This document shows, in pieces, positions 2,045 to 14,721 of a stretch of DNA of 64,000 bases (the stretch's first letter is position 1; each line of letters opens with the position of its first letter). Source of the DNA: Microgenomates group bacterium. GTDB taxonomy: Bacteria > Patescibacteriota > Microgenomatia > UBA12405. Made by a program: the position numbers and the translations under genes. The notes under the pieces are model-generated. The model was not told the DNA's origin. It worked only from the letters and a program-made list of their open reading frames with translations, and did not search any database. The DNA lies in the NCBI GenBank assembly GCA_049303675.1, contig JBAQNJ010000001.1, positions 472,711 through 536,710 of the forward strand, given 5' to 3'.

Positions 2045-5000
2045 GTGGAACTAAACCAGCAGCAACAGCAAGCAGTCGATACTATCGAGGGACCAGTGAT
2101 GGTCATTGCCGGCGCTGGTACCGGTAAAACCCAAGTCATTGCCCACCGTATCGCCAATATTTTACAAAAAACCCAAACATCACCTTCATCAATTTTATGT
2201 CTGACATTTACCGACAATGCTGCGACCAACATGCGCACCCGCCTTATCAGTCTGATTGGCCCTACTGCCTATTCAGTTCGTATTCATACCTTCCATTCAT
2301 TTTGCCAAGAAATCATCCAATCACATCCGGATTATTTTATTTTTGCCCCCAAACTAATCGCTATCGAAGAACTCGACAAAATCCAAATTATTCGTGGTTT
2401 ATTGGACAAGTTGCCGGACAACTCAACTATTAGGCCATGGGGAGATCATTATTTTTATCAGCGTGATATTATTTCTGCCATTCAGACTCTTAAGCGCGAA
2501 AACATTTCTGTTGATAAATTATCAACCCTAATTTCCGATCAAGAAAAATTTATCTCACTAATCACTGATCACTATTCACTGCTCAAATCACTCCGTGTCA
2601 ACGTCGACCTCGACAATCAAATTACCAGCATTTCTCAAAAATTACTTAATTTACCAAATATATCATCATCAATCTTGTCACTAATCACTTATCACTCTTC
2701 ACTATATAAAAATGGTGGCTACAATTTAGGAGCAGCTAAAAATCCAGCTATCAACTATAAAAATGCTCTCCTTAAATTTATTGATAATTTAATTCGCGAT
2801 ATCCCCAAACAAAAAGATTTACAAACCATCTATCTAGGCTACCAATCTGCTTTGCAGACAAATGGTTATTACGATTTTGACGATATGATTTTGTTTGTTA
2901 TCCGTGCCTTTGAGGCACACCCTGATCTACTGTTAGAACATCAAGAACAATCCCAATATTTTCTAGTTGATGAATATCAGGACACCAACTCCGCCCAGAA
3001 CAAAATCATCAATCAATTAGCCTCCTATTATGATCAGCCCAATTTATTTGTAGTTGGAGACGACGATCAGTCTATTTTCAGATTCCAAGGAGCCAGTACC
3101 GCCAATATCCTCGATTTTTATAATCAATATCATCCGACAGTTATTGTTCTTCAAAATAATTATCGTAGCCATCAGCTAATTCTCGACTCTGCCTCCTCAG
3201 TTATCCGCCGTAACCAAAATCAATTGGTAAATTACATCAAAAATATTGACAAGTCTTTGGTGTCTGCGCTCACTCTGGACACCGATCCTATAAATATAAT
3301 CACCCCCCAAACCACGATTGAAGAAAATTATTTTATCAGTATCAAAATCCGCCAATTATTAGATCAGGGGACACCGCCTAGCGAAATTGCCATTTTATTT
3401 CGTAATAATTCCGATATCGCCGATCTAGTGGAGCATTTATCAGTTGCCAAAATAAAATATTTTCTCTCCTCTGATCAAAATATTTTAGATCTACCTCTAA
3501 TCCGTCAGATGATCTATTTGCTTACTCTAATTGACGACCAGTCCAGAAAGGATCTCGTTTACCATCTGCTTTGTGCCCCCTTTATCAATCTAAATTCCAA
3601 TGATATCAATACTCTCTTACTTGGCCGTGATTTACTGAATTACAAGGCAAAGGGTATTTCCCAAACATCAAAAATAAAAATCAAAAATTTGATTCTCCGA
3701 CTCAATCTAGCCCGCAAATGGGTAGTAAATTTACCACTAGATAGATTTTTCGACAAGATTATCCGTAAATTCAAAATACTTAAATCTGTGCTGGCTACCC
3801 ACGACCCCCACTTATTAAACGCCCTCAATACTTTTTATCAGCATCTGCGCCACCAATTCGACCTTTCAGATTTGACTCTCCACCAATTTGTCTTGTATCT
3901 TCAGTCACTCTCAGACAACAATTTACCACTAGTCGCTCCCCAACTACCCGAAGATTCGGCAAATTCTATTCAGCTCCTCACCGTTCATCGAGCCAAAGGA
4001 CTCGAATTTTCCCATGTTTTTTTGTACAAAGTTGTCGACAAAAAATGGGGTAATAGTGTTGACAGGAATCACTTGCACTTGCCTCTGGGTATTATTAACA
4101 CCTCAGTTTCCTCAGAACTGGATGACCAGAACGAAGAGGAACGTCGTTTATTCTATGTCGCTCTGACCCGAGCCAAATCACAAATCTATATTTCCTATAG
4201 TCAACAAAACCAAAATGGTCGGCCACAATTGCCTTCCCAATTTATCAGTGAAATAGATCCGCAGTTAATTCAACCGGTCCTCCTGCCGGATAATTTATAC
4301 CAAAATTCGTTGTCGAGTCTTTTTTCCGACAAAAATATTTTTCATCGTCAGGATCACGCTTTCACCAATTATCTAAAAACTTTTTTGACTACTGATTATA
4401 TTTTCAATGTCACCCACCTCAATTCTTATCTACGCTGTCCACTTTGTTTTTATTATCAAACTATTTTACGTCTACCCGCTGTTCGTGACAAATTCAGTAG
4501 TTTCGGTACCGCCATTCACGAAGCCTTGTCTTTTGCCTACACCATTTCTTCTTCACAACCAGACATTAAAAACATTTTTGAGAAGTCATTAAAACACCAA
4601 CATTTATCCCAAAATGATTTTAATGAAAGTCTCGCTAGGGGATTTCAAACTTTAGTTGAGTATGTTGATTTTTATCGTGTTAAGCCCAGCAAAAATTATC
4701 AAGTCGACTATGACTTCAAAAAAGAGCATCAGTATTTGGACAATATTCCACTAACCGGCAAAATAGATTTGATCGAGAAAATAGGGGATAAGCTGAATCT
4801 ATATGATTTCAAGACAGGAAACCCCGATTCCAAAAGTACGGAGTTGGGTCCGGACGGGGAGTATTTTCGTCAAATCGCTTTTTACCATTTACTAATTTCC
4901 AGTAGCAGTCGTCTACCTCACCAGATCATTAGTTCATATATTGATTTTGTCCAAAAAAGCAAAACCAAAGATACCTTTATTCGCAAAGAAATAACCATTA

Positions 5001-6235: not shown

Positions 6236-7276
6236 ATGACTCTCATCTACATCTTGCTATTAATCATCCTCGCCACCCTTGGCTACTTTATATATCGTCA
6301 AAGTCAGATCAAAGCTATCGAGCCAGATTTATCCAAAGCCATTGATACTCTGGTCAAATTGAGTAATGAAAAATTAGATGATAAAACCAAACAGATTTCA
6401 GTCGATCTAGCAGGCAAAAAAGACGCCATCGAAAAAATGGTCCGCGACATCAGTGAAAATTTAACCAAGGTTGAGAAAGAACGAGTTGGCAGTTTTACCA
6501 ATTTACGTGATGCCATCGAAAACAATGTCAAATTAACCAAAGAATTGTCGGTTACTACCGAAGGTCTAAAACGTGTTTTAAGTAACAACCAACAGCGTGG
6601 TGCTTTTGGCGAAAAAGTCGCCGAGGATTTGTTAAAAATGTCGGGTTTCGTCATCGGCACTGACTACACCCGTCAAGAAACAACCGGGGACGCCCGACCC
6701 GATTTTACCCTATATTTACCCGATAAAACAAAGATTAATATTGATTCTAAATTTCCTTATTCCAACATTGTCAATATGAGTGAGGCTCCTGAAACAGATC
6801 AAAAAAATCATTTTAAAAAGTTATTTGAACAAGATATCAAAAAGAAAATTAATGATGTCACCTCCAGAAATTATATTAATCCCGAGGACAATACTGTTGA
6901 TTTTGTGATTTTGTTTATCCCTAACGAAATGATTTTTAGTTTTATTTACGAAAGTTTCCCCAATGTCTGGCAAGACGCCCTCAACCGAAAAGTCGTCATG
7001 ACCGGTCCATTTTCTTTTACCGCTATTTTGCGCATGGTCAAGCAAGCCTATGAAAATTTTAGATTTCAAAAAAATGTTCAGGGAATTATTACTCAAATCA
7101 AAATTTTTGGTACCGAGTTTGAAAAGTACAATGAAGAGTTTGTCAAAATCGGGGATAGGATCGACAGTCTCCACAAGCAATACGATGAGGTAGGTGCCAC
7201 TCGTACCAAGAAGCTGCAAAAAGTTATTGACAAGATAAATCTTGAAGACAGCACCCATCATGCACTCCCTCTATAG
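6236..7276 (+). CDS. rmuC: DNA recombination protein RmuC
   Basis: N-terminal TM helix, a long coiled-coil, then the conserved RmuC block LSNNQQRGAFGEKVAEDLL and a C-terminal nuclease-like domain. Confidence 0.7.
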   Translation: MTLIYILLLIILATLGYFIYRQSQIKAIEPDLSKAIDTLVKLSNEKLDDKTKQISVDLAGKKDAIEKMVRDISENLTKVEKERVGSFTNLRDAIENNVKLTKELSVTTEGLKRVLSNNQQRGAFGEKVAEDLLKMSGFVIGTDYTRQETTGDARPDFTLYLPDKTKINIDSKFPYSNIVNMSEAPETDQKNHFKKLFEQDIKKKINDVTSRNYINPEDNTVDFVILFIPNEMIFSFIYESFPNVWQDALNRKVVMTGPFSFTAILRMVKQAYENFRFQKNVQGIITQIKIFGTEFEKYNEEFVKIGDRIDSLHKQYDEVGATRTKKLQKVIDKINLEDSTHHALPL

Positions 7277-7564
7277 TGTTTTTGTTTTTACTTTTTACTT
7301 TTTACTTTTAATTTTTATCAACGTCTTTGCCCCCACCTCACCTCTACTTATTGCCACATTTTTTCTCTTATTATTCTGCGCTATTTTTTGTACGCTAAAT
7401 ATATTTTTAAAAAACATTAAAAAAAGCCTACTAATAGGGCTATTTTTTATAGCCTTACTTCTACTCCATTTTTTTCAGCAGATTTCGATATTAAATATTG
7501 TCCTAGTGTTTTTACTTTTTATTTTTGGATTTTGGATTTAGGTTTTTGCCTCTCATTTCCCCTC

Positions 7565-7594
7565 TTGACACCTGTTAGCACTCTATGTAATATA
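7565..7594 (+). promoter_or_regulatory. sigma-70-type promoter of hrcA (TTGACA-N17-TAATAT)
   Basis: TTGACA at 7565-7570, a 17-nt spacer, TAATAT at 7588-7593. The predicted TSS is about 7600-7603, at or next to the hrcA ATG (7603), so the transcript is leaderless. Confidence 0.5.
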
Positions 7595-7601
7595 TTGCTA
7601 A
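7575..7601. promoter_or_regulatory. CIRCE-like HrcA operator (TTAGCACTC-N9-TATTGCTAA)
   Basis: The left arm matches the CIRCE consensus TTAGCACTC exactly, the spacer is 9 nt, and the right arm matches 6 of 9 positions of GAGTGCTAA. It overlaps the spacer and -10 of the hrcA promoter. Confidence 0.55.
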
Positions 7602-7602
7602 C

Positions 7603-8328
7603 ATGGCAGATTTAACTCAGAGACAAATCAAGATTCTCAAATGTATCACCGAAGAATTTATCGACAGTGCTGGTCCAGTTGGATCGGAAAACTTAGAGCG
7701 TAAATTCAATCTCGGTATTTCCTCGGCCACCATCCGCAACGAAATGTCCTCGCTCACTCAACTCGGTTATCTCAAAAAATCTCACCTCTCCGCTGGTCGC
7801 ATGCCCACCAGTATGGGTCTCAAATACTATGTCCGCAATCTGATGACTCCTAAAAACATGAGTACTACCGACGAAATTGGTGTCAAAGAAAAGGTTTGGG
7901 ACTATCGCAACGAGTTTGAGAGGTTACTCAAAGAAACCACCCGTGAACTCGCTATTCGTACTCGATCTATGGCTGTTTCGACCACCGATCATGGCACTAT
8001 CTATAGTTATGGCGCCAGCAATCTATTAGAAGAGCCAGAGTTTTACAACATCGATGTGACTAAAACAGTTTTATCGCTCATCGATAACACCAATTTCTGG
8101 TTTGACATCGTTTCTCGTGCTGGTACCACCGAAGAAATAATCCATCTTTTAATTGGCGAAGATTTAGGTATGGAGCACCTCGAACCCTGCGGATTCATTT
8201 ACCAAACTTACGAAGCCGGCCCTCATCGCGGTATTGTTGGCATTATTGGACCTGCACGCTGTCATTACCAAAGTGTCATCCCAGTAGTCGACTATTTTGC
8301 CGACCTCCTCTCCACTATTAGTCGTTAA
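7603..8328 (+). CDS. hrcA: heat-inducible transcription repressor HrcA (compact, 241 aa)
   Basis: N-terminal winged helix RQIKILKCITEEFIDSAGPVGSENL...SSATIRNEMSSLTQLGYLKKSHLSAGRMPTSMGLKYYV is the canonical HrcA signature. hrcA-grpE-dnaK synteny supports the call. Confidence 0.8.
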   Translation: MADLTQRQIKILKCITEEFIDSAGPVGSENLERKFNLGISSATIRNEMSSLTQLGYLKKSHLSAGRMPTSMGLKYYVRNLMTPKNMSTTDEIGVKEKVWDYRNEFERLLKETTRELAIRTRSMAVSTTDHGTIYSYGASNLLEEPEFYNIDVTKTVLSLIDNTNFWFDIVSRAGTTEEIIHLLIGEDLGMEHLEPCGFIYQTYEAGPHRGIVGIIGPARCHYQSVIPVVDYFADLLSTISR

Positions 8329-8334
8329 TTTTTT

Positions 8335-8772
8335 ATGAAAACCAAAAGTTCAAAAACTCCACTAGTCAACTCTGAGGTCAAAGATCTTAGAGATCAACTT
8401 GCCCGTTCTCTGGCTGACTACTCCAATCTGGAGAAACGCATCGAAGCCCAACGGCAAATGTTTGTCACCCTAGCCACTATGAGTATTATCAACAAAATGG
8501 TGGATGTTCTCGATGACCTTTATCTGACCAACTCCCATCTCAATGATGATGGTCTCCAAATGACTATCAACAAATTTATCAATGTATTATCGTCCGAAGG
8601 ATTAGCCGAAATTGCTACCAATGTCCCCTTCAACCCCGAGACCATGGAATGTGTTAGTACTGTTGATGGTGAAGATAATGTTATTATTTCAGTCCACAAA
8701 AAGGGATATACCCTCAATGGACAAGTTATTCGTCCCGCCCAAGTAATTGTCGGCAAAAAAATTACAAATTAA
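8335..8772 (+). CDS. grpE: nucleotide exchange factor GrpE
   Basis: Coiled-coil N-terminus ([16 protein letters not shown]) and C-terminal beta domain. Positioned between hrcA and dnaK. Confidence 0.8.
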
Positions 8773-8789
8773 TATTTATTAAAAAAACT

Positions 8790-10727
8790 ATGTCAAACTC
8801 AAACAAAATCATCGGTATCGATTTAGGCACCACCAATTCTTGTGTCGCTGTCATGGAAGGCGGCACCGCCAAAGTTATTTTTAGTTCTGAGGGTCGCAAC
8901 ACCATCCCCTCCATTGTCGAAGTGGTCAAAAAACTCGTTGGTGATTTGGCCAAACGACAAATGGTCCTCAACTCCAAAAACACTGTCTTTTCAGTTAAAC
9001 GTCTTATGGGTCGACGCATCGATGATCCCGAGGTAGTCAAAACCATTCAAATAGCTCCCTACAAAATTGTCGCCGGCAAGGACAAAATGGCTTGTGTCGA
9101 AATAGAAGGCAAGATCTATACTCCTCAGGAAATCTCCAGTATGATTTTAGCCAAATGTAAGGCCGATGCCGAAAAATATTTAGGTGAAAAAGTCGAACGG
9201 GCAGTCATTACCGTTCCTGCCTACTTTGATGATTCTCAGCGTCAGGCTACCAAGCAAGCTGGAGAAATCGCTGGGCTCAAGGTTGAGCGTATCGTCAACG
9301 AACCCACTGCTTCTGCCCTCGCCTATGGACTAGATAAAAAGAAAAAGGGAATGGTGGCCGTTTACGATTTAGGTGGAGGTACTTTTGACATATCTGTCCT
9401 CGAAATTGGTGATGGTGTTTTTGAGGTGAAGGCCACCAATGGTGACACCTTTTTAGGCGGCGATGATTTTGATCAAAAGATTTTACATTGGCTAATCGAT
9501 AACTTCAAAAAAGACCAAGGAGTTGATTTGGGTAAAGATCCCCAAGCACTCCAACGTCTGCGTGAAGCTGCCGAAAAAGCCAAAATTGAATTATCCTCGG
9601 CTCAAGAGACCGACATTAATTTACCTTTTATCACTCAACGTGACGGCAACCCCCTCCATCTGACAGTCAAACTGACTCGCTCGGAAATGGAAAAATTAGT
9701 TGATGATCTAATTCAAAAAACTATCGGTCCGGTGGAAAAGTGTCTTAAAGACGCTGGCGTTAGCAAATCCGATATCACCGACGTTGTCATGGTTGGTGGT
9801 ATGACTCGTATGCCCAAGGTTCAACAAGTGGTCAAAGATTTCTTCGGCAAAGATCTGGATACTACTGTTAATCCCGATGAGGTGGTCGCCATTGGTGCTG
9901 CCGTGCAGGGTGCCGTCCTCACTGGTGAAGTCAAAGACATCGTCTTACTCGACGTTACTCCACTAACTTTTGGTATCGAGACCGCCGGTGGTGTTCGCAC
10001 ACCTCTAATTGATCGTAATACTACCGTACCTACCAAGAAATCACAGATATTTACCACCTATTCCGATTCTCAGCCTCAGGTGGAAATCAATGTCTTGCAA
10101 GGTGAGCGTCCTATGGCCGCGGACAACAAGTCTCTTGGTAGATTTGTATTAGATGGTATTCCCCCAGCCCCTCGCGGTACTCCTCAAATCGAAGTCACTT
10201 TTGATATTGATAGCAATGGTATTTTATCTGTCTCTGCCAAAGACAAGGGCACTGGCAAAGAGCAAAAAATCACCATTCAAAATGCTACCAACTTGAAAGA
10301 TGAAGAAATCGAGCAAATGAAAAAGGATGCTGAATCTCATGCTCGTGAAGACGAAGAAAAGCATGGCCTAGCGGAGAGTCGCAACAAGCTTGATGGCACC
10401 ATTTTCTCGGGAGAGAAAACTCTCAAAGATTTTGAGAACAAGGTCAAACCAGAAGATAAAACTATTATTGAGGACAAAATCAAGGCCGGTAAAGAATTGC
10501 TGGCCAAAACCGATGTCAAAAAAGACGAGTTTGATAAGTTCTCTGAAGAATTTAATCAAATCCTCCAAACCATTGGCGCTGCCATATACCAACAGCAACA
10601 ACCCCCACAGGGAGGTCCTGCAGGTGAGCCTACGGCCGAACCATCAGCCGAAGAGCCTGCCTCAGACAAAAAAAAGAAGTCTGCCAAAACTGATGAAAAA
10701 GTTGAGGAAGGTGAGGTTGTTAAATAA
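8790..10727 (+). CDS. dnaK: molecular chaperone DnaK (Hsp70)
   Basis: [39 protein letters not shown] and an acidic C-terminal tail ending ...EEGEVVK. Confidence 0.97.
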
Positions 10728-10737
10728 TAATTACGTC

Positions 10738-10790
10738 ATTGCGAGGTCCGGCTCCGGCCGGACCGCGGCAATCTTTAACAACGTGATTTT
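10738..10790. repeat. dispersed intergenic repeat, copy 1 (tcattgcgagg - hairpin - cgcggcaatctttaacaacgtga)
   Basis: 12-nt and 23-nt conserved arms are shared with 62868-62920. The internal part is a GC hairpin ggtccggc-tccg-gccggacc. It lies directly 3' of the dnaK stop. Confidence 0.5.
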
Positions 10791-10804
10791 AAAAAAATAA
10801 AAAC

Positions 10805-11248
10805 ATGCCAATCGATTTAATTAGAGAAAAACAAGTTAATAGCGAAACAGATTCTTTTTCTGTCAACATAAAACCTCTCAAGATTGAAGGTGCCCCAAAA
10901 CGTCAACTAGATGCACTCGCAAATCATGCGCTAGGTGAAAATAGAGGTGAACTTGCCTTCAAAAGTGTCCATCCATATTTAATCGGACTTAATGGAGACA
11001 ATCCAGAAAACGTTGAAAAACTCTCTGTAGCAGCCATTGATTTTCTTGCAAAAAATTTTCCAGTAAATATCCCCAGTCTATCATTTACTCTGATCCGTCA
11101 TGAAACTATGGCTCGGGTTGGTATACAAAATGCACCAAACTTTGCCATTATGGCGGTACAGGATTTTAGTACTATTATACCCGCTATAAATACTGTGAAG
11201 GAACCTTTTTATGGTACATTTAATCAATTTCTTGAAACGCTAAAATAA
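10805..11248 (+). CDS. hypothetical protein (147 aa), cassette gene 1 of 5 between dnaK and dnaJ
   Basis: ORF with no recognisable domain, tightly packed with the next four ORFs. Confidence 0.5.
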   Translation: MPIDLIREKQVNSETDSFSVNIKPLKIEGAPKRQLDALANHALGENRGELAFKSVHPYLIGLNGDNPENVEKLSVAAIDFLAKNFPVNIPSLSFTLIRHETMARVGIQNAPNFAIMAVQDFSTIIPAINTVKEPFYGTFNQFLETLK

Positions 11249-11249
11249 T

Positions 11250-11603
11250 ATGTCCGACGAATCAATGGAATTTTCTGAAAGGACACCAAAATCAAAGCCA
11301 TCAGCAAAAGTTAATCATATGACTCTGGAAAGAGCCATAGAATTGGGAGAATATGATGAAAAGTTTTTGGAAACTTTTCGAGACTGGGCAGATCTCAGTC
11401 AAAATATTCGCTTCAATTATATTTTGCGAGCTATCAAAAACCGGCGCCAATTTTTACGTCTCAATTATGCTGAAACCTTTAATGTTCTCGACTACAGTCA
11501 AAAGCCAGAACTAAAAAATGTTCTCGAAGCAATCAACAAAAGATTAATTGAACTACAGTTGGAAGAAGAAAAAATTAGAGTAGAATACTCATCACGGTTA
11601 TAA
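11250..11603 (+). CDS. hypothetical protein (117 aa), cassette gene 2
   Basis: ORF starting 2 nt after the previous stop; no domain recognised. Confidence 0.5.
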   Translation: MSDESMEFSERTPKSKPSAKVNHMTLERAIELGEYDEKFLETFRDWADLSQNIRFNYILRAIKNRRQFLRLNYAETFNVLDYSQKPELKNVLEAINKRLIELQLEEEKIRVEYSSRL

Positions 11604-11649
11604 ACTATGAGATGTGCCACCAGCGCGTCTCTACAAAAAATAATAAAAT

Positions 11650-12078
11650 ATGACATCGAAACCAGCAGAAGAAAGTCAAACTCCATTTTTTGAAGATAAA
11701 AACAAAGGCCCTTTGTGGAAAAAACTCAGTGATTCTGAACGCCAAAAATTAATAGATAGAGACAAACAAAAATTTAATGGGTATTTAAGCATTTTACCCG
11801 AAGTCATATATTACCCAAAAGGTGATGAATCATATATTTTACACAAGAAGCTCTTTGGTGAATATTTTAGCGATCATAGCCATGAACTTAGGATTAATTC
11901 AATGATAAAAACCGTAAAAAGAAATGACGAAAGTATAATTCTATACTTTGGTTGTAGTAACGCTAGACCAACAAACGAAATGGAATTTATAAAATCTCTT
12001 ATCAAAGCAACTGGCCATGTTAATGAACTACTGCAAACAGTAGGCGCTACAAAATTAATCTCAGCAAACAAATTATAG
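11650..12078 (+). CDS. hypothetical protein (142 aa), cassette gene 3
   Basis: ORF only. Confidence 0.5.
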   Translation: MTSKPAEESQTPFFEDKNKGPLWKKLSDSERQKLIDRDKQKFNGYLSILPEVIYYPKGDESYILHKKLFGEYFSDHSHELRINSMIKTVKRNDESIILYFGCSNARPTNEMEFIKSLIKATGHVNELLQTVGATKLISANKL

Positions 12079-12081
12079 TTT

Positions 12082-12339
12082 ATGAAAAATCCAGAATTCC
12101 AAATCAACCAGCTTCGGCTTGACAAAATAATTTATGCTGTCGAGGCCGTAGCCATAAACATCACCTGTTTTTCGGTTACTATTTTAGTCGGCAATTTTCT
12201 TGGCGAAAAAAGTTTTGACGCTGGTTACAATCTCATCACTCCCGCCATCTTATCCATTGGTATTATATTTACTCTCTATGCCCTCATTGGCAATCTCCTA
12301 CGGTTGCGTAAAATAAGACAATTAGAAAAATCTATATAA
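12082..12339 (+). CDS. hypothetical small membrane protein (two TM helices), cassette gene 4
   Basis: Two hydrophobic helices: AVEAVAINITCFSVTILVGNFL and ITPAILSIGIIFTLYALIGNLL. Confidence 0.45.
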   Translation: MKNPEFQINQLRLDKIIYAVEAVAINITCFSVTILVGNFLGEKSFDAGYNLITPAILSIGIIFTLYALIGNLLRLRKIRQLEKSI

Positions 12340-12385
12340 TTTGCCTGTTTTACGATATAATACAAACTATATAAATTAAAACACA

Positions 12386-12760
12386 ATGTCAAAACTAAAT
12401 ATCATGTGGAACGAAGTCAGACAGCCAGAGAGACAAATATTAATGGATGAATATACTAAGCTAAACCAACAGTTAGTTCTCAATGGTTTTCCCTTGGTGT
12501 CTTTTCAAACAATTACCAGCTACTCTGAGCAAGAAGACCAATTACGTTTTTTTGCCGGTGACTTACATACAGCAATTAGCAAAAAGTTACCACAGAATGA
12601 AAAAATATTTTTCGAATTACCAGTCAGAAAATCACCTGACAGTGGTATTGCCAGAATGTATGTTTCTTGTGCATCAGGAAAATTAGACTTAATCGAAGAT
12701 GCATTAGATGAAGTAGCTCATGAAAACCCCACAGTTCCACAACGACGAAAAAGGTTATGA
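12386..12760 (+). CDS. hypothetical protein (124 aa), cassette gene 5
   Basis: ORF whose stop overlaps the dnaJ start (ATGA-type junction at 12757-12760). Confidence 0.5.
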   Translation: MSKLNIMWNEVRQPERQILMDEYTKLNQQLVLNGFPLVSFQTITSYSEQEDQLRFFAGDLHTAISKKLPQNEKIFFELPVRKSPDSGIARMYVSCASGKLDLIEDALDEVAHENPTVPQRRKRL

Positions 12761-13617
12761 AAAAAGATTTTTACGAAACATTAGGGGTCCAAAAAGGTGC
12801 CGGCAAGGACGAAATCAAATCGGCCTATCGTAAAATGGCGATGCAAAATCATCCCGATCGCAACAAGGCTCCCGATGCCGAAGAAAAATTCAAGGAAATC
12901 AACGAAGCCTACGAAGTTCTCAGTAACGATCAAAAAAAGCAGGCCTACGACCAGTTTGGTCACGCCGCTTTTGACCCATCTTCGGGCGGATTTGGTGGTC
13001 AGACCCACAGTACTCAAAACGGACCCTTTAGCTATACCTGGCAGAGTAGCGGTGGCAGTAACCCTTTTGGTGGCCAAGAGTTTGACTTTGGCGGATTTAG
13101 CAACCCTTTTGATATTTTCGAATCATTCTTCGGCGGCAATATGGGCGGAGGTCGTCAACGAGCCCAAATCCCGACCTACAAAATTCAAATTAGTTTCCTC
13201 GATGCTGCCAACGGCGTTGAAAAAGAAGTCGATATCAATGGCCACCGCAAAAAAATAAAAATTCCTGCCGGTGTTGATGATGGCCAGCGTATCCGCTTTA
13301 ATGAGTTTATTTTATATATCGACGTTTTACCGGATAATACCTTTAAAAGAGATGGTAATGATGTCTATGTCAATGTCGACATTACTTTTGTTGATGCCGC
13401 TCTTGGTACCGAGCTGGAAGTCCCCACCCTTCATGATCCGATTACTATCAAAGTCAAAGCCGGCACCCAGCCCAACACTCTTGTTCGACTTCGTGGGCAG
13501 GGAATCAAGGATGTCAACGGCTACGGACAGGGAGACCTCTATATCCGACTATCTGTTGTTGTCCCTATCAAACTAACCAGCCATCAAAAAGATCTGTTGA
13601 GAGAATTGGACTTTTAA
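12757..13617 (+). CDS. dnaJ: J-domain co-chaperone DnaJ/CbpA type (no zinc-finger domain)
   Basis: J domain DFYETLGVQKGAGKDEIKSAYRKMAMQNHPDRN with the HPD motif, a Gly/Phe-rich linker and C-terminal substrate-binding domains. There are no cysteines at all, so the CxxCxGxG repeats are absent. Confidence 0.8.
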   Translation: MKKDFYETLGVQKGAGKDEIKSAYRKMAMQNHPDRNKAPDAEEKFKEINEAYEVLSNDQKKQAYDQFGHAAFDPSSGGFGGQTHSTQNGPFSYTWQSSGGSNPFGGQEFDFGGFSNPFDIFESFFGGNMGGGRQRAQIPTYKIQISFLDAANGVEKEVDINGHRKKIKIPAGVDDGQRIRFNEFILYIDVLPDNTFKRDGNDVYVNVDITFVDAALGTELEVPTLHDPITIKVKAGTQPNTLVRLRGQGIKDVNGYGQGDLYIRLSVVVPIKLTSHQKDLLRELDF

Positions 13618-14685: not shown

Positions 14686-14721
14686 GTAGAGTCGCCATAT
14701 ATGGCGACTCTACTTTTTTTT
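14686..14721 (+). terminator. strong rho-independent terminator after nusA
   Basis: Perfect 28-nt palindrome gtagagtcgccata/tatggcgactctac (14686-14713) followed by T8 (14714-14721). Confidence 0.8.

Follow-up and report, generated by a model that had tools for sequence, protein, structure and literature searches.

Between the chaperone genes dnaK and dnaJ, the 64,000-nucleotide window analysed here carries a cassette of five small open reading frames (ORF1–ORF5) that fill the interval and are all on the + strand. The window comes from the roughly 1-Mb genome of an uncultured bacterium in the Microgenomates/Shapirobacteria, whose nearest relatives are Candidatus Shapirobacteria. Conservation of the sequences argues that the five ORFs are genuine protein-coding genes, not chance frames. 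Their families are restricted to Candidatus Shapirobacteria: all five recur in at least one other lineage of that clade, and copies were found only in the dnaK–dnaJ slot, on the same strand. On balance, we favour the explanation that these clade-restricted genes occupy a hypervariable slot, built by recombination, within an operon of the HrcA/CIRCE type (CIRCE, controlling inverted repeat of chaperone expression). We add a more doubtful guess: that the slot proteins are clade-specific modulators, adaptors or dedicated clients of the chaperone machine.

The cassette had been singled out in an earlier note on this DNA, and its description of the five + strand ORFs (147, 117, 142, 85 and 124 aa) is confirmed. 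They comprise ORF1 (10805..11248), soluble and with no known domain; ORF2 (11250..11603), acidic, hydrophilic and the best-conserved gene of the cassette; ORF3 (11650..12078), which is basic; ORF4 (12082..12339), with two hydrophobic segments; and ORF5 (12386..12760), from a family of 121–126 aa. All five are annotated as genes in assembly GCA_049287145.1. The spacing of 2–50 nt that the note gave between ORFs is approximately right: the measured gaps are 1, 46, 3 and 46 nt, after 77 nt between dnaK and ORF1. The overlap that it described between the last stop and the dnaJ ATG measures 4 nt (ATGA). Close to 100% of the sequence is coding, and stop and start codons overlap. The cassette is also AT-richer than its surroundings, as had been claimed (GC content 0.348 against 0.408 for the window), and just 0.8% of 2-kb windows have a lower value.

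Divergence between related loci, which we denote by L-numbers, points to selection on the encoded proteins. Synonymous sites are saturated (proportion of synonymous differences, pS, 0.57–0.82). Relative to L015, the corresponding nonsynonymous value (pN) is 0.131 for ORF1 and 0.120 for ORF2, beside 0.129 for GrpE and 0.108 for DnaJ; against their orthologues, ORF1 and ORF2 have a pS of about 0.58. For ORF4, comparison of L005 with L014 gives a pN of 0.073 and a pS of 0.82. We read these values as purifying selection on ORF1, ORF2 and ORF4 comparable to that on GrpE and DnaJ. Furthermore, orthologues retain length and frame, and motifs are conserved family-wide. The window's own ORF4 is an outlier, being 44–53% identical to the other copies (that of its sister L015 included), which are 63–90% identical to each other; the gene either evolves at an accelerated rate or has been exchanged for a divergent allele.

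A scan of species-representative genomes, anchored on GrpE, recovered ten related loci, nine of which span dnaK–dnaJ (L011 ends inside dnaK). DnaK of the window is 63–95% identical to DnaK of related loci, and within the ingroup the proteins flanking the slot are 77–95% (DnaK) and 68–85% (DnaJ) identical. The slot is empty in five of the 19 lineages surveyed (L007, L008, L009, L012 and L013); in the others it has from one to five genes, and the window's set is the largest. In L015, L016 and L017, the first gene behind dnaK is a homologue of ORF1, and homologues of ORF2 (85% identity) and ORF4 (51%) come next; the complete order in L015 is ORF1-ORF2-ORF4-d110, where d110 is an unrelated 110-aa protein, and then dnaJ. 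L014 has ORF2 and ORF4, and L005 has ORF4 alone; ORF2 is 79–85% identical to its homologues in L014 and L015, and homologues of ORF4 are found in L005, L014, L015 and L021. Among 5.8 billion clusters, we found one non-self homologue of ORF1 (74% identity) and one of ORF3 (45%), the latter in L026, where it sits between genes that we name a129 and c127. An exhaustive HMMER search of 1.84 billion representatives with ORF5 returned four small full-length homologues at 29–37% identity. Homologues of ORF5 occur in L020, L021, L022, L025 and L203, each directly after dnaK and/or before dnaJ: the L021 slot reads ORF4-ORF5, and that of L022 (a fully syntenic 949-kb Shapirobacteria contig whose DnaK is just 80% identical to the window's) holds ORF5 alone.

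Other occupants are unrelated to the cassette. In L006 (6504-6773) and L010 (12486-12755), which belong to separate branches of the DnaK tree, the slot gene encodes an 89-aa DUF3850/ASCH-like protein (Pfam E 2e-20). In L203, a 78-aa protein with a strongly hydrophobic N-terminus, TM78, is encoded between the ORF5 homologue and dnaJ (6366-6602); it is unrelated to ORF4 and is also present in L204 and L206, as a fragment in L025, and possibly in a similar form in L020. The pairing of soluble proteins with a small membrane protein, as judged from their sequences, therefore recurs with different families (ORF4 or TM78).

On the DnaK tree, the window (1-2-3-4-5) has L015 (1-2-4-d110) as its sister, and the next clade carries 4 and 2-4; L026 has a129-3-c127, and the ORF5 family is represented on both major branches. 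ORF2 and ORF4, which the closest relatives share, alternate with ORF1, ORF3 and ORF5, which those relatives lack, and this rules out a single insertion event. Regional synteny (uvrD...rmuC-hrcA-grpE-dnaK-dnaJ-nusA-infB) is conserved. We also scanned metagenomes with a DnaJ alignment as anchor, which gave only DnaJ relatives at 29–39% identity; these served as an outgroup. None of the five families was found in eighty distant dnaJ loci (566 kb). That hrcA-grpE-dnaK-dnaJ is normally contiguous, as the earlier note had it, holds as a tendency: dnaK and dnaJ are close together in 14 of 18 outgroup loci, but operon content besides dnaK-dnaJ varies considerably between bacteria (PMC12077118).

The traces of how such a slot may be filled are clearest in L026. 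Its two internal junctions (7911-8000 and 8427-8519) match each other at 86% identity, which rises to about 96% if one indel is left out; the genes that flank them align at chance level (52% of nucleotides). Each junction consists, in order, of the preceding stop codon, 23 nt copied from the start of dnaJ (ATGAAACCAGATTTTTATGAAGT), then a short stop and TATAATC, a palindrome that we name H (see below), and lastly a leader and the next gene. The dnaJ-start copy forms a mini-ORF (MKPDFYEV, then stop) that is broken at GAAGT, a pentamer that the final dnaK codons (GAAGTGGTTAAATAA) contain too. These junctions bear the marks of unequal or illegitimate crossover between the 5' end of dnaJ and the 3' end of dnaK. 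Such a crossover, involving the dnaK 3' end and its untranslated region, would either duplicate the whole interval or stack a different allele upon it, each stacked unit comprising a post-dnaK hairpin, a leader and a small gene. Stepwise stacking followed by differential loss would then generate the subsets seen in relatives; alleles might also be exchanged between lineages by way of the conserved flanks. This build-up, shown in L026, would apply to the window by extension. There, a degenerate copy of H (GAGAUGUGC...GCGCGUCUC + UAC; 11609..11634, + strand, -13.5 kcal/mol, z -5.7) precedes ORF3 at exactly the position of the intact H before the ORF3 homologue of L026, and is presumably the window's own scar of array building. 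The degenerate copy pairs through G.U and therefore folds as sense-strand RNA.

H itself is an exact 28-nt palindrome, GTAGAGACGC-N8-GCGTCTCTAC, with a 12-bp stem and a tetraloop. Exact copies lie at L015:4453-4480, L021:26-52, L025:91-118 and L026:7469-7496, 7956-7983 and 8476-8503, and L010, L015, L021, L022, L025, L026 and L203 have H, or a variant close to it, behind dnaK or at the head of the slot. About 300 kb of Shapirobacteria sequence contain eight exact copies, all in the slot, and for the sequence covered we consequently rejected the idea of a genome-wide REP-like repeat (REP, repetitive extragenic palindrome). The 64-kb window has one H remnant and one variant. The latter, at 14686-14713, carries compensatory changes (GTAGAGTCGC...GCGACTCTAC), is followed by T8 (to 14721) and constitutes the nusA terminator; slot copies of H have an A-run or mixed sequence downstream in place of the T-run that an intrinsic terminator would require, so the same type of stem occurs both with a T-run, after nusA, and without one, in the slot. 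In L020 (157-366), three tandem related hairpins (GTAGGAAC...GTTCCTAC) with different inner stems occupy a gene-free stretch between dnaK and the ORF5 homologue.

H is also found far from this clade. The viral sequences of IMG/VR contain it in exact form in 93 stretches (L107-L199; 123 copies), on contigs of 37–69% GC with diverse flanks; a composition-matched shuffled palindrome gave 0 matches, and two natural stem variants gave 2 and 1. The phage copies have a few recurring loops, one of which (GATTAATC) is identical to that of the post-dnaK copy in L026. They are mostly intergenic, within tens of nt of gene ends, and sometimes have partial copies alongside. There they bracket capsid-, terminase- and tape-measure-like genes, and on this ground we rejected the idea that H carries small cassettes in phages. 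Clustering of the neighbouring proteins in the 93 viral loci revealed no shared transposase or recombinase beside H, and we found the element neither in Rfam nor in the searchable full-text literature. That exact H arms are common to bacteria of the candidate phyla radiation (CPR) and diverse phages is the most surprising part of this analysis.

Assignment of the operon to the HrcA/CIRCE type follows from an inverted repeat at the promoter together with hrcA. A CIRCE-like operator, TTAGCACTC-N9-TATTGCTAA (7575-7601, + strand), has two mismatches to the CIRCE consensus; the search pattern, TTAGCACTC-N9-GAGTGCTAA, gave this one match, where 0.02 would be expected by chance. It overlaps the best promoter-like site, TTGACA-17-TAATAT (7565-7593, + strand), directly upstream of hrcA. 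ORF1–ORF5 would be transcribed from this CIRCE-controlled promoter and, in that event, the cassette proteins would be made with DnaK and DnaJ under stress. A heat-shock co-regulated module is consistent with the predicted operator, the single strand, the tight or overlapping junctions and the signature of purifying selection.

Two elements might adjust expression within the operon. The first is a GC-rich hairpin after dnaK (10738..10772, + strand, -28.6 kcal/mol, z -4.7). Its position is kept in most Shapirobacteria loci examined, its sequence is not, and it is absent in L008 and L014. The earlier note saw here a repeat/terminator element; however, the hairpin has no further copy within the 64-kb window, and because no T-run follows, it is not a canonical intrinsic terminator. 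No terminator-like site was scored on the + strand in 10728-12760. We suggest that the hairpin is probably an mRNA 3'-end stabiliser or an attenuator, which would set the level of the cassette below that of dnaK. The second is the leader of ORF5 (12340..12385, + strand), in which TATAAT at 12356-12361 is invariant in an alignment across four lineages; this leader is kept before ORF5-family genes even though the proteins are just ~30–37% identical. It may be a second, internal promoter, serving ORF5-dnaJ.

The absence of a recognisable domain, noted from the letters, is upheld by searches of ORF1–ORF5 against Pfam, NCBIfam, PHROGs and PADLOC, none of which gave a significant match; sequence searches of the PDB, made with ORF1, ORF2 and the profile of the ORF5 family, were likewise without one. 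A MerR-family domain, as in J-protein modulators of the CbpM type, was sought in ORF1–ORF5 at Pfam E values up to 1 and not found. ORF4 has hydrophobic segments at about residues 16–41 and 47–75, and these probably span the membrane, in keeping with the two transmembrane helices proposed earlier; its conserved regions are the N-terminal MKNxEFQIxQLRxDKIIYAVEA and the C-terminal GNLxRLRKIKQLE. The ORF3 and ORF5 families have a common N-terminal W-x7-ER-x2-L segment (hhalign probability 77%, E 2e-5, 32 columns). The kinship is visible in the DNA too, as a 44-nt direct repeat that is 70% identical, and we conclude from these sequence comparisons that the two segments are homologous. We do not claim a single superfamily of ORF1, ORF3, ORF5, d110, a129 and c127: beyond the ORF3/ORF5 link, pairs give E values of 0.009–0.03.

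AlphaFold models followed by Foldseek, a check that had been proposed, were informative for the ORF5 family and not for ORF1, whose AlphaFold2 model is unusable (predicted local distance difference test, pLDDT, 44). The ORF5-family model, built from five sequences (pLDDT 68; predicted template modelling score 0.59), has an N-terminal helix and a ferredoxin-like beta-alpha-beta-beta-alpha-beta domain. Its best matches in PDB and BFVD are ferredoxin folds, all with E > 1e-3 and TM-scores of 0.45–0.6; they include designed ferredoxins, TON_0450, PII/SbtB, ACT and S6, all of them generic, and the family profile against PDB gives S6 at E 0.025. The model, of moderate confidence, suggests a generic ferredoxin-like fold for the family. 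Ankyrin-repeat matches to ORF5 were not accepted as homology; they cover only a helix-turn motif of ~30 residues. The earlier note had foreseen that the five might turn out to be annotated, conserved core genes, or to have housekeeping folds; instead, the subsets carried by relatives vary, and none is annotated.

Within ORF5, positions 12597-12612 match the dnaJ start (ATGAAAAAAGATTTTT) at 15 of 16 nt, at the conserved F-F/Y-F-E/D-L-P motif; nothing else in 58 kb matches with at most one mismatch. Derivation of the ORF5 family, or of ORF4, from the 5' end of dnaJ was considered and dropped, profile comparison with DnaJ being negative. The match is either a scar or a coincidence.

Other explanations of the cassette need to be weighed. 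The interval might be a gene nursery, a permissive, strongly transcribed gap in which small ORFs arise, stay briefly and vanish, with functions that are unrelated or marginal to the chaperones; we regard this as a possibility to be taken seriously, though not as the probable one. It would suit near-orphan families of AT-rich composition, the rapid divergence of ORF3, ORF4 and ORF5, the patchy presence and absence on the DnaK tree, with empty slots, and the unrelated occupants (DUF3850, d110, a129, c127 and TM78); small-gene indels are also seen at dnaJ–nusA (L006, L009 and L022) and rmuC–hrcA (L022), and the recombination scars indicate that the slot grows mechanically. On the other hand, ORF1 and ORF2 are constrained like GrpE and DnaJ, and ORF4 strongly so between L005 and L014; the ORF5 family persists on both major branches (DnaK about 80% identical), repeatedly overlapping the dnaJ start; and the repeated occurrence of a soluble protein of ~120 aa next to a small membrane one suggests a module under selection. 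Unlikely, in our judgement, is a bolder version of the recombination-built slot: a dedicated cassette array, driven by recombination, in which units led by H are stacked, swapped and lost, H being an undescribed mobile or protein-recognised intercistronic element that CPR bacteria have in common with many unrelated phages, and the products new partners of a DnaJ that lacks a zinc finger. We give still less credence to a foreign island, as entertained in the earlier note, brought in by a phage, plasmid, integron-like or other mobile system. Its genes have the lowest GC of the window and are absent from the closest species representatives, and the unit-leading H is exact in those 93 IMG/VR stretches, as against 0–2 for the controls. 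Yet tblastn of ORF1–ORF5 against 50,697 phage (INPHARED) and 72,556 plasmid (PLSDB) records gave no match, nor did PHROGs or the defence genes of PADLOC, or IMG/VR scans with ORF1–ORF4; Pfam annotation of the 6 kb on either side shows a UvrD-like helicase, HAD, RmuC, HrcA, GrpE, HSP70, DnaJ, NusA and IF-2, and no integrase or transposase; and all homologues found are chromosomal, in the same slot and the same clade. Moreover, window-specific genes are interleaved with shared ones, and the phage H brackets ordinary structural genes with no recombinase travelling along. Hardly credible at all is an annotation artefact, by which chance reading frames would lie within a long regulatory spacer. Small size, the lack of domains, AT-richness and the failed structure prediction for ORF1 could be cited for it, but length and frame are preserved among orthologues, pN lies well under pS (ORF1, ORF2 and ORF4), motifs run through whole families, the ORF5 model is of moderate confidence, and coding density is ~100% with overlapping stop and start codons.

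Several points weigh against the explanation that we favour, that of clade-restricted genes in a recombination-built slot, and against a chaperone role for their products. The survey of 19 lineages includes many on short contigs. ORF3, ORF5 and the window's ORF4 evolve fast, and no other 2 kb of the window is as AT-rich as the cassette. Clear dnaJ-5' scars are present in L026 and absent from the window. Expression and promoter activity at this locus are read from sequence, and the tie of the slot proteins to DnaK and DnaJ is a guess from position and sequence. Synteny is conserved regionally in any case, so that families born in the slot would stay there without a functional tie; and the unrelated occupants (DUF3850, d110, a129, c127 and TM78), together with the roughly one quarter of lineages in which the slot is empty, show its contents to be inessential to the chaperone system.

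If the slot proteins do act on the chaperones, we would guess at the following arrangement: ORF4 (or TM78 elsewhere) would be a membrane component, the soluble ORF1, ORF3 and ORF5 proteins of 110–147 aa would be its partners, and ORF5 would be translationally coupled to DnaJ. What prompts the guess of a chaperone role is that the pairing of a soluble protein of about 120–147 aa with a small membrane protein recurs and that DnaJ is zinc-finger-less. The DnaJ of the window has zero cysteines, and must therefore be without a zinc finger (a class B-like J-protein).

In the tiny genomes of CPR/Patescibacteria, a large proportion of the genes lack a known function. Accessory genes of dnaK operons elsewhere include dafA of Thermus thermophilus (a DnaK-DnaJ assembly factor of ~8 kDa), actinobacterial hspR, and yqeT/yqeU/yqeV downstream of dnaJ in Bacillus subtilis. 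The Shapirobacteria genes resemble these in being small, clade-restricted and placed with dnaK-dnaJ, and presumably co-transcribed, the resemblance to DafA being positional only; the difference is that the slot holds several unrelated families between dnaK and dnaJ, none to five among close relatives. Capsule and O-antigen loci also have variable contents between conserved flanks, exchanged by homologous recombination. The slot is like them in its conserved dnaK and dnaJ flanks and in contents that differ by lineage and are patchy on the tree, but it is tiny (0–2 kb), lies inside an operon and encodes orphan small proteins, and exchange here is putative.

The likeness to integrons lies in co-oriented ORFs that follow a resident promoter and mostly show none of their own, and, in L026, in units separated by a repeated palindromic junction far better conserved than the genes. 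In contrast to integrons, there is no intI within 6 kb of the cassette, and by inspection the junctions and H lack attC R''/R' cores (RYYYAAC / GTTRRRY); since the junctions carry copies of the dnaJ start, they point to unequal crossover rather than site-specific recombination. Extragenic palindromes of the REP/BIME type (BIME, bacterial interspersed mosaic element) stabilise upstream mRNA in operons. H is like these in being a perfect palindrome that starts with GTAG, intercistronic, beside highly expressed genes, without a T-run, and sometimes in tandem or with partial copies. It differs in being undispersed (the eight exact copies noted above), with no transposase of the RAYT (REP-associated tyrosine transposase) type seen, and in having exact arms that are common to phage contigs of 37–69% GC.

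In Enterobacteria, the dnaK-dnaJ intergenic region of 85 nt contains the small RNA tpke11 and is associated with differential abundance of dnaK and dnaJ mRNA; in Salmonella, the levels of the two mRNAs are uncoupled through this region (PMC12077118). A structured post-dnaK hairpin occupies the same position in most Shapirobacteria loci, where, in contrast, the spacer has expanded into protein-coding units, the hairpin being copied along.

The interest of the locus is that constrained, clade-restricted genes stand in an informative context: their place is always the main chaperone operon, and close relatives differ in which of them they carry. Should the slot proteins modulate DnaK/DnaJ, they would count as new co-chaperone partners, and this in a lineage with a zinc-finger-less DnaJ; should they not, the slot would be a natural example of the birth, stacking and loss of small genes in a strongly expressed operon, with the scars still readable. 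New as the protein families are, their distribution is narrow, and the array forms by a conventional mechanism. The H palindrome is a separate lead, to an undescribed intercistronic RNA or DNA element.

The genes around the cassette follow the + strand order hrcA, grpE, dnaK, ORF1–ORF5, dnaJ, nusA, infB. The gene hrcA lies at 7603..8328 (Pfam HrcA C-terminal domain, E 1.3e-17), grpE at 8335..8772 (Pfam GrpE, E 1e-28) and dnaK at 8790..10727 (645 aa, Pfam HSP70, C-terminus EEGEVVK), all on the + strand. The dnaJ gene (12757..13617, + strand) encodes 286 aa with a J domain, a G/F-rich region and a C-terminal domain, as assigned from Pfam and sequence. An Rfam csRNA match at 11315-11404 on the minus strand was set aside as chance (32 bits, where the gathering score is 57; E 0.29).

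Neighbouring junctions of the syntenic block are variable too: L022 has inserted AbiEii-toxin and DUF6922 genes plus two small ORFs between rmuC and hrcA (3205-4742), and L006, L009 and L022 have insertions between dnaJ and nusA. In the window, a very hydrophobic 99-aa ORF at 7242-7541, between rmuC and hrcA, has no gene call in the source annotation. Finally, ORF3 and ORF4 share a reading frame, with TAG and TTT between them (12076-12084); read-through of this TAG would join the soluble ORF3 to the two-segment ORF4 protein.

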